Positions 6,483 to 64,000 of a DNA stretch of 64,000 bases are shown here, one piece after another. This DNA comes from Escherichia coli. Lineage in GTDB: Bacteria; Pseudomonadota; Gammaproteobacteria; Enterobacterales; Enterobacteriaceae. The translations under genes and the position numbers were made by a program. The notes under the pieces were generated by a model. That model searched no databases and was not told where the DNA came from. It saw only the letters and a list, made by a program, of their open reading frames with translations. Position 1 is the stretch's first letter, and each line of letters begins with the position of its first letter. The stretch lies in NCBI RefSeq assembly GCF_036507355.1, contig NZ_AP027877.1; one strand, given 5' to 3'.

Positions 6483-9080
6483 TTAAACTGCAGTCTGGAA
6501 AATCACCCCATCGGCTTTCTCGGTGTACTGAGAAAGCTGGTTGAAGTTCAGATAACGGTAAGTATCAACGGCTGTTTTATCTACCTGCGCCACGTAGGTC
6601 TGGTACTCTTCCGGCGTCGGCAGTTTGCCAATCAGCGCCGCAACAGCAGCCAGTTCCGCAGAAGCCAGGAAGACGTTTGCACCAGTACCCAGACGGTTCG
6701 GGAAGTTACGGGTAGAGGTGGAAACCACCGTCGCACCGTCTGCTACACGCGCCTGGTTACCCATACACAGGGAACAGCCAGGGATCTCGATACGCGCACC
6801 ACTCTTACCGAAGACGCTGTAGTAGCCTTCTTCGGTCAACTGTGCGGCGTCCATACGGGTTGGCGGTGCCACCCACAGGCGGGTCGGCAACTGGCCTTTA
6901 TGCGCATCCAGCAGTTTACCCGCAGCACGGAAGTGACCGATGTTGGTCATGCAGGAACCGATAAACACTTCGTCGATCTTCTCACCCTGTACCGCAGACA
7001 GCGGACGCGCGTCATCCGGGTCGTTCGGAGCACACAGGATTGGCTCTTTAATATCCGCCAGATCGATGTCGATCACTGCCGCGTATTCCGCATCTGCATC
7101 GGCTTCCAGCAGCTCAGGATTCGCCAGCCATTTTTCCATGCCCTGAATACGACGTTCCAGGGTGCGACGATCGCCGTAACCTTCCGCGATCATCCACTTC
7201 AGCAGGACGATGTTGGAGTTCAGGTATTCGATGATCGGTTCTTTGTTCAGCTTGATGGTACAACCGGCAGCAGAACGCTCGGCGGACGCATCGGTCAGTT
7301 CAAATGCCTGCTCAACTTTCAGATCCGGCAGACCTTCAATTTCCAGAATGCGACCTGAGAAGATGTTTTTCTTGCCTTTCTTCTCAACGGTCAGCAGACC
7401 TTGTTTGATCGCATACAGCGGAATAGCGTGTACCAGATCGCGCAGGGTGATGCCCGGCTGCATTTTGCCTTTGAAGCGCACCAGAACGGATTCCGGCATA
7501 TCCAGCGGCATTACGCCTGTTGCGGCTGCAAATGCCACCAGACCAGAACCCGCCGGGAAAGAGATACCGATCGGGAAACGGGTATGGGAGTCACCACCGG
7601 TACCGACGGTATCCGGCAGCAGCATACGGTTCAGCCAGGAGTGGATTACGCCGTCACCCGGACGCAGCGACACACCGCCACGGTTCATAATGAAGTCCGG
7701 CAGCGTGTGGTGCGTGTTCACGTCAACTGGCTTCGGATACGCCGCGGTGTGGCAGAAAGACTGCATCACCAGGTCAGCCGAGAAGCCCAGGCACGCCAGG
7801 TCTTTCAGTTCATCACGGGTCATCGGGCCTGTGGTGTCCTGAGAGCCTACAGAAGTCATTTTCGGTTCACAGTACGCGCCCGGACGAATGCCTTTCACGC
7901 CACAGGCACGGCCTACCATTTTCTGCGCCAGCGAGAAGCCGCGATCGCTCTCAGCGACATCTTTCGCCTGACGGAACACATCACTGTGCGGCAGACCAAG
8001 TGCTTCACGCGCTTTGGTGGTCAGGCCACGCCCGATAATCAGCGGAATACGGCCGCCAGCACGCACTTCATCAATCAGCACGTCGGTTTTCAGTTCGAAG
8101 GTCGCCAGCAGTTCGCCTGTTTCGTGGTTACGCACTTCACCTTTGTACGGGTAAACGTCAATCACGTCGCCCATGTTCAGGTTAGAGACGTCGACTTCGA
8201 TTGGCAGTGCACCCGCGTCTTCCATCGTGTTAAAGAAGATGGGTGCAATTTTACCGCCGAGGCACAAACCACCGCCGCGTTTGTTCGGCACATGTGGAAT
8301 ATCATCGCCCATAAACCACAGAACGGAGTTCGTGGCGGATTTACGCGAAGAACCCGTACCCACAACGTCACCGACGTACGCCAGCGGGAAACCTTTCTGT
8401 TGCAGAGCTTCGATTTGCTTGATCGGACCAACAACACCAGGCTGGTCTGGCTCAATACCTTCACGGGCGTTTTTCAGCATCGCCAGCGCGTGCAGTGGGA
8501 TATCCGGGCGCGACCACGCATCCGGTGCCGGAGAAAGGTCATCGGTGTTGGTTTCGCCAGTGACTTTGAAGACGGTAACGGTCAGTTTTTCAGCCAGCGC
8601 CGGGCGATTCAGGAACCATTCGGCATCCGCCCAGGACTGCATTACCTGCTTCGCATATTCGTTGCCTGCTTTCGCTTTCTCTTCTACGTCATAGAAGTTA
8701 TCGAACATCAGCAGCGTGTGAGAAAGTGCTTTGGCAGCGATCGGTGCCAGTTTGGCATCATCCAGCGCGTCGATCAGCGGATGAATGTTGTAACCACCCT
8801 GCATGGTGCCCAGCAGTTCGATGGCTTTTTCCGGAGTCAGCAGTGGGGATTTGGCTTCACCTTTCGCGACAGCAGCCAGGAAGCCTGCTTTGACATAGGC
8901 GGCTTCATCGACGCCAGGGGGAACACGGTTGGTTAATAGATCTAACAGGAATTCTTCTTCGCCCGCGGGCGGGTTTTTCAGCAGCTCTACAAGTGCGGCC
9001 ATTTGGTTTGCATCCAGGGGTTTGGGCGCAATCCCCTCAGCGGCACGCTCAGCTACGTGCTTACGGTATTCTTCTAGCAC
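6483..9080 (-). CDS. acnB: Aconitate hydratase B / 2-methylisocitrate dehydratase (865 aa), GTG start
   Basis: ORF 6483..9233; start placed at the GTG (revcomp of 9078-9080) giving (M)[21 protein letters not shown]..., with GAGGAG RBS upstream; length matches AcnB. Confidence 0.96.
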
Positions 9081-9434: not shown

Positions 9435-10435
9435 ATGAAAATGACTTTGCCGTTTAAACCCCATGTGCTGGCGCTAATTTGCAGTGCCGGGCTTTGTGCC
9501 GCCTCTACCGGGCTATATATAAAAAGCCGCACAGTGGAAGCGCCTGTGGAACCGCAATCGACACAACTGGCTGTGTCTGACGCTGCCGCGGTTACGCTTC
9601 CTGCAACGGTTTCCGCACCTCCCGTAACACCCGCCGTCGTCAAATCCGCATTCAGCACTGCACAAATAGATCAATGGGTCGCGCCCGTCGCGCTGTATCC
9701 CGACGCCCTACTTTCGCAGGTGCTGATGGCATCAACCTATCCGACAAACGTTGCTCAAGCAGTGCAATGGTCGCACGATAATCCACTTAAACAAGGCGAT
9801 GCTGCTATTCAGGCGGTATCTGACCAGCCGTGGGACGCCAGCGTTAAATCACTGGTGGCCTTTCCACAATTGATGGCATTGATGGGCGAAAACCCGCAAT
9901 GAGTGCAAAACCTGGGCGATGCTTTTCTGGCGCAGCCGCAGGACGTGATGGACTCGGTACAGCGATTGCGGCAACTGGCGCAACAAACCGGCTCGCTGAA
10001 GTCATCAACCGAACAGAAAGTTATTACCACAACGAAGAAAGCTGTACCGGTAAAACAGACAGTCACGGCACCCGTCATACCATCCAATACCGTTTCAACT
10101 GCCAACCCTGTCATTACAGAGCCTGCAACAACCGTCATTTCCATTGAGCCCGCCAATCCTGATGTAGTCTATATTCCCAACTACAACCCAACCGTGGTTT
10201 ACGGGAACTGGGCCAATACTGCGTATCCGCCGGTTTATCTGCCACCACCAGCCGGAGAACCGTTTGTTGACAGCTTTGTGCGCGGATTCGGCTATAGCAT
10301 GGGCGTTGCTACCACGTACGCACTATTCAGCAGCATCGACTGGGATGACGACGATCATGACCATTATCATCATGACGATGATAATTATCATCACCACGAT
10401 GGCGGTCATCGTGACGGTAATGGCTGGCAACACAA
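9435..10435 (+). pseudogene. yacH: yacH (DUF3300 family) 5' portion, carrying an in-frame TGA at 9900-9902 and ending where the IS element is inserted
   Basis: ORFs 9435..9902 and 9903..10454 are in the same frame, separated only by TGA; the frame then runs into the IS left inverted repeat at 10436. Confidence 0.85.
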
Positions 10436-10470
10436 TGAATCGCCACGGGTTTAACAGACACCTCAGAGTC
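10436..10470 (+). repeat. IS left terminal inverted repeat (IRL)
   Basis: TGAATCGCCACGGGTTTAACAGACACCTCAGAGTC; pairs with the reverse complement of 11630-11664. Confidence 0.85.
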
Positions 10471-10498
10471 ATTTAAGATGGCTTAAAGAGAGGTGCCC

Positions 10499-10777
10499 AT
10501 GAGCGGTAAGCGTTATCCCGAAGAGTTTAAAATTGAAGCAGTCAAACAGGTTGTTGATCGCGGTTATTCTGTTGCCAGCGTTGCAACACGTCTCGATATC
10601 ACCACCCACAGCCTTTACGCCTGGATAAAGAAGTACGGTCCGGATTCTTCCGCTAATAAAGAACAGTCAGATGCTCAGGCCGAGATCCGCCGTCTCCAGA
10701 AAGAGCTGAAGCGGGTTACCGACGAACGGGACATATTAAAAAAAGCCGCGGCGTACTTCGCAAAGCTGTCCGACTGA
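10499..10777 (+). CDS. IS3-family transposase OrfA (helix-turn-helix / leucine-zipper part)
   Basis: ATG at 10499 with RBS AGAGAGG; MSGKRYPEEFKIEAVKQVVDRGYSVASVATRL...ERDILKKAAAYFAKLSD, typical IS3-family OrfA. Confidence 0.88.
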   Translation: MSGKRYPEEFKIEAVKQVVDRGYSVASVATRLDITTHSLYAWIKKYGPDSSANKEQSDAQAEIRRLQKELKRVTDERDILKKAAAYFAKLSD

Positions 10778-21674: not shown

Positions 21675-22529
21675 TTACACCAACGCCCCGTAAATCGTCA
21701 GTAGCGCAATCACCACCACGACCACGAACGAGGTTTTCTTCGCCATTGAAACCGCTGCCTTCGGCGTCTCCACCTTATCGACATGCGGTTCACGCGCCAG
21801 AGAGAACTGCGCCAGACGCGTTAATACCTGATATTGCGAAGTATGGAAATCACCCAGCGAAGCAAACCAGGCCGGTAACGCTTTCTCACCATGACCGATC
21901 AAGGCATATACCACACCCGCAAGACGAACCGGCACCCAATCCAGTACATGAAGCACTGCATCAATGCCGGACTGTAAACGATGATGCGGCGTCTGGTATC
22001 GCGCCAGCCAGTATTGCCATGCACGCAAGAACGCATACCCCATCAGCGTAACGGGTCCCCAGGTTCCCCCCACAATCAGCCAGAACAGCGGTGCAAGATA
22101 AAAACGAAAGTTAATCCACAGCAATGCATTTTGCAGCTCACGCAAATACTCACGTTCATCGCAGCCTGCCGGGACGCCGTGAATCATGGTGAGTTCGCCA
22201 GCCATCGTGGCACGGGCATGGCTATCATTACGTGAAGCAGCTGTCAGATAAGCATGATAATGAAGACGAACTTTACCTGCGCCAATACACAGCAAACCAA
22301 TCAGCAGCCACACCAGCAGCGTGGGAACGTTGAACAATACTCCCTGCAATGCGCGTAACAGTAAAAAAGTCACGCCCATCGCAATAATGGTCATGCCTAA
22401 CGTGCGCCCGAGAGAAAAATGTTTCACCCGCCGAAAGAACGCTTCAAGACGATGATCAAGCTGCCAGTGCTCGCCCAACTTAAACAGGCGCTCGAAAATT
22501 AACACCAGTAAGGTTGTAAATAGCGTCAT
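21675..22529 (-). CDS. ampE: Inner-membrane protein AmpE (284 aa)
   Basis: ORF 21675..22568 trimmed to [32 protein letters not shown]...; start overlaps the ampD stop (ATGA). Confidence 0.93.
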
Positions 22530-23077
22530 GTTGTCTCCTTGCTGACCAGCGCACGAAACCGTGCCCAATCAAATGCAGGACCGGGATCGGTTTTCCGATC
22601 CGGCGCAATATCACAATGGCCCGTCATGTTATTAGCGATATCCGGATAGCAATCAATCAGTGCCCGCGTAACCGCCGCAAGCTGTTGATACTGCGCATCG
22701 GTATACGCCAGCGTATCGGTGCCTTCAAGCTCAATCCCAATAGAAAAATCATTGCAGCGTTCGCGCCCCTGATACTGAGAGACTCCCGCATGCCATGCAC
22801 GTTTATCGAAAGGAACATACTGGACTATTTCACCATCACGGCAAATCAAACAGTGAGCGGAGACGCGCAAATGGGCGATCTCAGCAAAGAAAGGATGTGC
22901 CTGCGGATCAATAGTTCCAGTGAATAATGCGTCGATCCACGGACCGCCAAACTCGCCTGGCGGCAGGCTAATATTGTGCACCACCAGCAGGGTGGGTGTT
23001 TCGTCATCCGGGCGGCAATCGTAATGTGGTGAGGGAACGCGGCGCGCGCCAACCAGCCACCCCTGTTCTAACAACAT
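22526..23077 (-). CDS. ampD: 1,6-anhydro-N-acetylmuramyl-L-alanine amidase AmpD (183 aa)
   Basis: Full-length [48 protein letters not shown]... Confidence 0.95.
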
Positions 23078-23104
23078 GCAGGATCTCCTTATATGTGGTG
23101 CTAA

Positions 23105-60825: not shown

Positions 60826-62842
<2,017 letters not shown>

Positions 62843-62875
62843 TTTGTACACCGTCCGGTACTCAATCGCCAAAAA

Positions 62876-63102
62876 GAAAAAAGCCAGCAGATAATCACTG
62901 CTGGCGTGGCGATTAACACCAATACTCAGTCACACATGATGTCCGCAAATCAGTAGTCAGAATGACTCCCCTCCCACTGCATCAGTTCTTCAAGCATGGT
63001 TAATCGTTGTGGGACGCTTAACCAACGCAACCAGCACAACTGCGCTGTCGCGGTAAAATAGTGCTGATAAAACTGACGCATGGGGCACCTCCTTGCTTCA
63101 TC
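62876..63102 (-). ncRNA. sgrS: Small RNA SgrS (glucose-phosphate stress sRNA; dual-function, encodes SgrT); ends approximate
   Basis: Minus strand starts GATGAAGCAAGGAGGTGCCCCATGCGTCAG..., contains the ptsG-pairing seed GAGTATTGGTGT and ends in a terminator hairpin CCAGCAGTGATTATCTGCTGG plus U-tract; sits 67 bp from the divergent sgrR start, as in K-12. Confidence 0.88.
62950..63081 (-). CDS. sgrT: Small protein SgrT (43 aa) encoded within SgrS
   Basis: C-terminal part of ORF 62950..63249: MRQFYQHYFTATAQLCWLRWLSVPQRLTMLEELMQWEGSHSDY, with an AGGAGG RBS upstream. Confidence 0.85.
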   Translation of the reverse strand: MRQFYQHYFTATAQLCWLRWLSVPQRLTMLEELMQWEGSHSDY

Positions 63103-63169
63103 GTTAGGAATTATTGACTTAATATAGGGAAAATAAAATTGCTGTCTTTTGCGCAGGAGTTCCCCTTTT

Positions 63170-64000
63170 ATGCCATCTGCTCGTCTGCAACAACAGTTCA
63201 TCCGCCTGTGGCAATGCTGCGAGGGTAAATCGCAGGACACAACGCTCAACGAACTGGCAGCGTTATTGAGCTGCTCGCGTCGTCATATGCGCACCCTGCT
63301 CAACACCATGCAGGATCGCGGCTGGCTGACGTGGGAAGCGGAAGTCGGGCGTGGTAAACGCTCGCGTCTGACATTCCTCTATACCGGGCTGGCGCTTCAG
63401 CAACAGCGGGCGGAAGACCTGCTGGAGCAGGACCGTATCGACCAACTAGTGCAGTTAGTTGGCGACAAAGCGACTGTGAGGCAAATGCTGGTTTCTCATC
63501 TGGGCCGCAGCTTCCGCCAGGGGCGGCACATCCTGCGCGTGCTTTACTATCGTCCGTTGCGTAATCTGCTACCTGGCAGCGCATTGCGCCGTTCCGAAAC
63601 CCATATCGCCCGGCAAATCTTCAGTTCGCTAACGCGCATAAATGAGGAAAATGGGGAACTGGAAGCAGACATCGCCCACCACTGGCAGCAAATATCACCG
63701 CTTCACTGGCGTTTCTTTTTGCGTCCAGGAGTCCATTTTCATCATGGTCGTGAACTGGAAATGGACGACGTGATCGCCTCTTTAAAACGAATCAATACGC
63801 TGCCGCTCTATTCGCATATTGCTGACATTGTGTCGCCGACGCCCTGGACGCTGGATATCCATCTCACGCAACCGGACCGCTGGTTACCGTTATTGCTGGG
63901 GCAAGTTCCGGCGATGATCCTGCCGCGCGAATGGGAAACCCTCAGTAACTTTGCCAGCCATCCCATCGGCACCGGTCCGTATGCGGTGATTCGCAACAGC
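63170..64000 (+). CDS. sgrR: Transcriptional regulator SgrR, N-terminal 277 codons; 3' end lies outside the window
   Basis: ATG at 63170 opens a frame with no stop to the window end: [60 protein letters not shown]...; not in the ORF track because it has no stop codon in the window. Confidence 0.93.

Follow-up and report, generated by a model that had tools for sequence, protein, structure and literature searches.

A setA-less sgrS-leuD junction in Escherichia coli: very likely an old and common allele of the genus

In Escherichia coli K-12 the gene setA is co-transcribed with the small RNA gene sgrS by read-through of the sgrS terminator (Sun & Vanderpool 2011, as summarised in PMC4021124 and PMC4509938). 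SetA is induced together with SgrS and aids the recovery of growth under some conditions of glucose-phosphate stress, and it is not the exporter of alpha-methylglucoside (PMC4021124, PMC4509938). The synteny tbpA-sgrR-sgrS-leuD was analysed by Horler & Vanderpool 2009 (PMC2760817), with setA appearing in Figure 2. According to that paper, the SgrS of CFT073 and that of O157:H7 are 88% identical to the K-12 molecule and the sgrT start codon has been lost in O157:H7; its text does not take up the absence of setA. Apart from its synteny legend, nothing in the literature searched says outright that certain phylogroups lack setA. The mentions of 'setAB' in pathogenomics papers concern the unrelated ShET1 toxin genes.

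Two SgrS alleles and the synteny of the locus were thus already described in 2009, and the RefSeq annotation of thousands of genomes shows the arrangement reported below, which is in that sense already known. On sequence comparison, the only mildly novel thread is that the K-12 setA cassette looks like an exceptional and mobile allele within the genus. The locus is described here as it occurs in a 64-kb stretch of an E. coli chromosome (contig NZ_AP027877.1), referred to as the window.

The sgrS-leuD locus compared with described strains

The K-12 record gives the order sgrR, sgrS/sgrT, setA (77621-78799), leuD, in agreement with the order given in an earlier note on this DNA. BLAST against the K-12 region from 50 to 148 kb showed the window to be collinear at 98.6% identity, with window 30182-62836 pairing with K-12 111511-78854 and window 62877-64000 with K-12 77592-76469. 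The 1261 bp between these blocks in K-12 (77593-78853), which include the whole of setA, are replaced by 40 nt, and a tblastn search with K-12 SetA gave no match anywhere in the 64-kb window. The claim of the earlier note that setA is missing relative to K-12 therefore stands, as does its distance of 33 nt between the leuD stop codon and the end of sgrS, since the RF00534 match covers 62876-63102. The note had allowed that leuD and sgrS might lie equally close in K-12; in the alignment they are separated there by setA. No SET-family MFS gene follows the sgrS terminator in the window. A pairwise MAFFT alignment of the window with K-12 misplaced the large gap, and the BLAST coordinates and a multi-taxon alignment were used instead. 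The features of the locus are collected in Table 1.

Table 1. Features at and around the leuD-sgrS junction in the window (NZ_AP027877.1)
Feature	Position	Strand	Basis and remarks
leuD (3-isopropylmalate dehydratase small subunit)	62237-62842	+	ORF list; intact, 201 aa, TAG at 62840-62842, C-terminus FMR*
haplotype-linked block	62770-62971		holds 24 of 30 differences fixed between the setA-plus and setA-less E. coli compared (61001-64000)
leuD-sgrS spacer, 33 nt	62843-62875		between convergent leuD and sgrS; putative ancient setA-deletion junction
sgrS intrinsic terminator	62871-62905	-	terminator scan; hairpin 62883-62905, tail U6CU5 62882-62871
sgrS sRNA, CFT073/O157-type allele	62876-63102	-	Rfam RF00534
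sgrT ORF, 43 aa	62950-63081	-	ATG intact; equals CFT073 SgrT except K14Q (translations compared)
divergent sgrR-sgrS promoter region, 67 nt	63103-63169		98.5% identical to K-12
sgrR 5' part, 831 nt (277 codons), truncated at the end of the window	63170-64000	+	tblastn, 100% identical to K-12 SgrR residues 1-277

The genes on either side of the junction proved to be intact, as the earlier note had maintained for sgrS, sgrT and leuD; for sgrR, which the note had likewise called intact, this holds for the 277 codons that lie within the window. The covariance match to RF00534 scored 226.6 bits (gathering score 37) and covered model positions 1-232 of 232; sgrT is a complete frame of 43 aa with its ATG; and residues 1-200 of LeuD are 100% identical to K-12 LeuD by tblastn. 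The base-pairing seed of SgrS, CATGTGTGACTGAGTATTGGTGT, is matched exactly and is the same as in K-12, and a promoter-like site is found on the minus strand at 63148-63121. The terminator is a G+C-rich hairpin with an 8-bp stem (GCCAGCAG/CUGCUGGC) and a loop of 7 nt, directly followed by UUUUUUCUUUUU in both the terminator scan and the RNA fold; its folding energy is -21.1 kcal/mol (z = -4.1). The window holds the hallmarks of an SgrS gene: a full-length model match, a divergent sgrR with the promoter region, sgrT, the seed, and a hairpin with a U-tract. With promoter region, sgrT, seed and terminator all intact, sgrS forms a stand-alone unit, and no gene lies downstream of it that read-through of the terminator could express.

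A comparison with the K-12 read-through operon revealed a sharp internal boundary. Identity between window and K-12 is 98-99% in sgrR, the promoter region, the 5' half of sgrS and most of leuD, and falls to 82-88% at 62801-63000, versus 98.6% overall. More specifically, the promoter region is 98.5% and the 5' half of sgrS 97% identical and the seed is the same. In the 3' half of sgrS, by contrast, identity to K-12 is no more than 72%, while identity to other Escherichia species is 95-97%. The C-terminus of SgrT differs as well. The terminator stem GCCAGCAG/CUGCUGG is also found in K-12; in the window it is closed by a G-C pair and followed by U6CU5, whereas the K-12 tail is U8. LeuD ends in Arg201 (FMR*) in the window, which is the Salmonella and Citrobacter state, and in Asn201 (FMN*) in K-12. 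Above all, the window has no setA downstream of sgrS, and so no bicistronic read-through product.

The loci of CFT073 and O157:H7 share with the window the SgrS allele, the SgrT C-terminus ...EELMQWEGSHSDY and the position of leuD directly beside sgrS (contiguous, 97-99.5%). The window differs from O157:H7 in keeping the sgrT start codon, which that strain has lost according to PMC2760817, and from CFT073 in one extra SgrT substitution and in the lack of an IS200C element in the terminator tail. The substitution, K14Q, is present in none of K-12, IAI1, CFT073, IAI39, SCU-316 and 042. The IS200C of CFT073 lies within the A/T tract of the setA-less junction (approximately 1840-2550 of the extracted locus, corresponding to window position ~62877), such that the SgrS tail of CFT073 consists of six U followed by the end of IS200.

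Distribution of the junction in E. coli and other genera

A junction probe of 641 nt was aligned to 5426 complete E. coli genomes, a collection without Shigella, and a genome was counted when the probe aligned at one place over at least 80% of its length. The contiguous, setA-less junction was found in 2159 of the 5426 genomes (about 40%), whereas the probe was split into two places in some 3240 others. The full-length alignments in a single piece are 95.6-99.8% identical and include O157:H7 and O55:H7. Of the 5426 genomes, 3241 carry K-12 setA; nearly all of them have one copy of it, on the chromosome, and in 3228 of these carriers its identity to the K-12 gene is 99% or higher. Because the setA-less (2159) and setA-bearing (3241) sets are complementary, setA has not been relocated elsewhere in the setA-less genomes; for the strain of the window itself, the absence of setA refers to the 64 kb of the window. 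The paralogue setB is essentially a core gene (5413 of 5426 genomes). The presence of setC, which adjoins selC, is variable (4281 genomes).

Among the reference strains, setA is lacking in CFT073 (phylogroup B2), 042 (D), O157:H7 and O55:H7 (E) and IAI39 (F), and present in K-12 (A) and IAI1 (B1). CFT073 matches the probe in two pieces, across its own IS200C insertion. The earlier note had presented the loss as a feature of this strain, and here it does not hold: the same junction occurs in the 2159 complete genomes and in four further Escherichia lineages described below, and the comparison across phylogroups places setA-less references in B2, D, E and F. Within the genus it is K-12 that shows the less usual arrangement. 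Over window 40001-64000, the best complete E. coli RefSeq genome is 99.4% identical, and the lineage of the window is not represented in that set.

For a wider comparison, one genome per GTDB species was scanned for the invariant SgrS seed, and the 44 loci obtained were mapped with the SetA, LeuD and SgrR proteins. In every locus outside Escherichia that extended far enough, setA lies directly downstream of sgrS (Salmonella, many Citrobacter species, Klebsiella, Raoultella, Enterobacter, Siccibacter, Superficieibacter, Pluralibacter), mostly with a convergent leuD on its far side. Since the outgroup genera keep setA beside sgrS, the presence of the gene is the ancestral state and the arrangement in the window a deletion, not a primitive empty site.

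Among the Escherichia lineages sampled, setA is also lacking in E. albertii, E. whittamii, Escherichia sp. E1V33 and the 'E. coli' strain SCPM-O-B-8794. In the multiple alignment these four share the junction endpoints of the window (...TTTATGCGTTAG), a spacer of 31-33 nt and the same terminator. The spacer differs from that of E. albertii by three substitutions and a 2-nt indel in 33 nt, and its divergence between species roughly equals that of the flanks. Having diverged about as much as its flanks, the spacer points to an allele that dates back to the species splits, and not to a recent transfer. Strain SCPM-O-B-8794, although labelled E. coli, reaches only ~90% identity with either K-12 or the window in the 5' region of sgrR, like E. 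albertii and E. whittamii, and by this measure probably represents a cryptic Escherichia lineage.

Unlike the window, Salmonella and Citrobacter keep setA (~1.18 kb) between sgrS and leuD, along with intergenic DNA that is REP-like. The region 3' of the seed, the terminator and the tail in the window resemble those of Citrobacter (GTTAATCGCC...GCUGGCUUUUUUC). A coupling of the type of terminator to the presence of setA is ruled out, as the setA-bearing Citrobacter and Salmonella have the G-C-closed stem and a tail of U6-7 in common with the window. The 24 nt after the leuD stop codon have no recognisable homologue in the setA-bearing genera, so that the endpoints of the deletion are not mappable exactly against the outgroups.

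Origin of the junction and of the K-12 cassette

The comparison makes it very likely that the spacer marks where one ancient deletion interrupted the ancestral order sgrR-sgrS-setA-leuD, and that this deletion has been inherited as a common Escherichia allele. Early in the genus, the deletion would have taken setA together with flanking intergenic DNA, and the resulting allele would have been passed down to the E. coli references of phylogroups B2, D, E and F and to the sister species. SgrR would then drive sgrS/sgrT with no efflux gene downstream, and sgrS would be a monocistronic unit closed by a hairpin and U-tract of its own, with the convergent leuD stopping only 33 nt away. The arrangement of K-12 (A/B1) would be an alternative, strongly diverged cassette. 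Less likely, the deletion allele may have spread among the Escherichia species horizontally instead of vertically.

A search of 62300-63400 for IS ends, target-site duplications and flanking direct or inverted repeats at the junction yielded short chance matches only, in line with the earlier note, which had seen neither an IS scar nor a repeat there. An IS-mediated deletion was rejected, no scar being present, and the IS200C of CFT073 is a secondary insertion. The event being old, a scar of an IS or a repeat could also have eroded.

The K-12 side of the comparison is clearest in the fixed differences over 61001-64000 between setA-plus strains (K-12, IAI1) and setA-less ones (the window, CFT073, IAI39, 042, SCU-316). 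There are 30 of these, 24 of which are confined to 62770-62971, and at almost all sites within that block the other Escherichia species show the state of the window. Just 3' of the seed, the sgrS of the window is Citrobacter-like and that of K-12 Salmonella/Enterobacter-like. Judged by its sequence, the K-12 type is a sharply diverged cassette comprising ~95 nt of the sgrS 3' end, setA and ~70 nt of the leuD 3' end. K-12 setA is 77-79% identical to the setA of Salmonella and Citrobacter, where the values for sgrR and leuD are 77-80% and 81-84%, and its G+C content is 48.5%, versus 55-57% for setA of Salmonella, Citrobacter and Klebsiella. With distances near those of sgrR and leuD and an Escherichia-like G+C content, K-12 setA is not a recent import from any of the sampled genera. 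It sits on a somewhat longer branch, given its 77-79% identity to genera that are mutually 80-84% identical. In the unclassified Escherichia sp. MOD1-EC7003 (extracted locus 1-1514), the 3' half of sgrS is of the K-12 type (100%) and the 5' end of setA is 98.9% identical to K-12, whereas sgrR is only 94% identical; the K-12 cassette has apparently been exchanged between Escherichia lineages.

These observations bear on each of the other explanations of the junction. A recent deletion of setA in this strain, within an otherwise K-12-like locus, would account for the reduction of 1261 bp to 40 nt and for the missing IS scar. However, the presence of the junction in 2159 complete genomes and four other Escherichia lineages, together with flanks that are not K-12-like (sgrS 3' half at 72%, against 95-97% to other Escherichia), leaves this reading almost no chance of being right. 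No credence at all can be given to a collapsed or mis-joined contig from which setA was dropped, as thousands of independently finished genomes show the junction base for base at 97-99.8% identity. That setA was never at this place in Escherichia, the window being a primitive empty site and the relatives of K-12 having gained a foreign setA from another genus, would fit the setA-less state of most sampled Escherichia lineages and the strong divergence of the K-12 cassette from the genus consensus at both of its ends. Against it, the outgroup genera hold setA in the same position and orientation, and the distances of K-12 setA to Salmonella and Citrobacter and its G+C content are those discussed above; we consider it very improbable.

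A further scenario, to which we give slightly less than an even chance, concerns the origin of the K-12 allele only and is compatible with the single ancient deletion. The deletion would have become fixed, or nearly so, early in the genus, after which homologous recombination with a deep-branching Escherichia-like lineage that still possessed setA returned the gene to the ancestor of the setA-plus E. coli, with crossovers in the leuD 3' end and in the middle of sgrS. The K-12-specific block is indeed tiny and sharply bounded, MOD1-EC7003 shows that the cassette moves between lineages, and 3228 of the 3241 E. coli carriers have a setA with 99% identity or higher. An old polymorphism with recombination eroding the linkage would, however, leave the same small block, and the exchange in MOD1-EC7003 may have run in either direction. 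Nor did a protein search with K-12 SetA for intermediate SetA lineages, such as E. fergusonii, as candidate donors yield one: all 120 matches listed were near-identical E. coli variants. Tentatively, and falling just short of an even bet, the overall history may be put as one early deletion of setA in Escherichia, the setA-plus E. coli carrying a small cassette, either re-imported or long retained, that is still moving. If this is true, the sgrS-setA operon of K-12 would be the exception within Escherichia, the Hfq-binding/terminator module of SgrS and the C-terminus of SgrT would have been swapped along with the efflux gene, and the cassette would be as far from the genus consensus as that of another genus.

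Consequences and neighbouring differences

The finding amounts to an ordinary presence/absence polymorphism that is old and lineage-wide. The SgrR/SgrS response of the strain of the window very probably operates without SetA, as the earlier note had proposed. For setA-less strains in general, we infer from the gene content of the locus and from the K-12 work that SetA, a minor arm of the response, would not be induced in glucose-phosphate stress, while SgrS, SgrT and SetB would be kept. Work on the SgrR/SgrS stress response has been done almost entirely in K-12, and ~40% of the sequenced E. coli, including EHEC O157:H7 and UPEC CFT073, have no setA. Those strains differ in addition in the 3' end of SgrS and the C-terminus of SgrT. 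Because the setA-less strains differ in exactly these parts, the K-12 results on read-through, on SetA-dependent recovery and on the terminator and Hfq need checking before they are transferred.

The junction may also affect the opposite strand. The terminator scan found no terminator-like site on the plus strand after leuD, and in the RNA fold the sgrS hairpin, when read on the leu transcript, would have no U-tract behind it; in K-12, leuD is followed by a hairpin with a short U run. Considering this lack of both a plus-strand terminator and a U-tract, transcription of leuABCD might run antisense into sgrS.

Two other differences were observed in the surroundings. An IS3-family element of 1.23 kb at window 10436-11662 (orfA 10493-10777, orfB 10834-11646) interrupts yacH relative to K-12. 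Copies that are 99.8-99.9% identical occur in other E. coli chromosomes and on plasmids; none of the matches listed reached into the yacH flanks, and so no listed genome has the element at that site. Beyond the right end of the window, the T3SS effector gene espY2 lies between sgrR and the thiB TPP riboswitch in SCU-316, IAI39 and 042 (22518-23087, 10289-10858 and 6759-7328 of the respective extracted loci) and is absent in K-12 and IAI1. Over its last 500-800 nt, the sgrR of SCU-316 matches that of K-12 at only ~90%, such that sgrR is flanked by a second diverged block linked to an indel.
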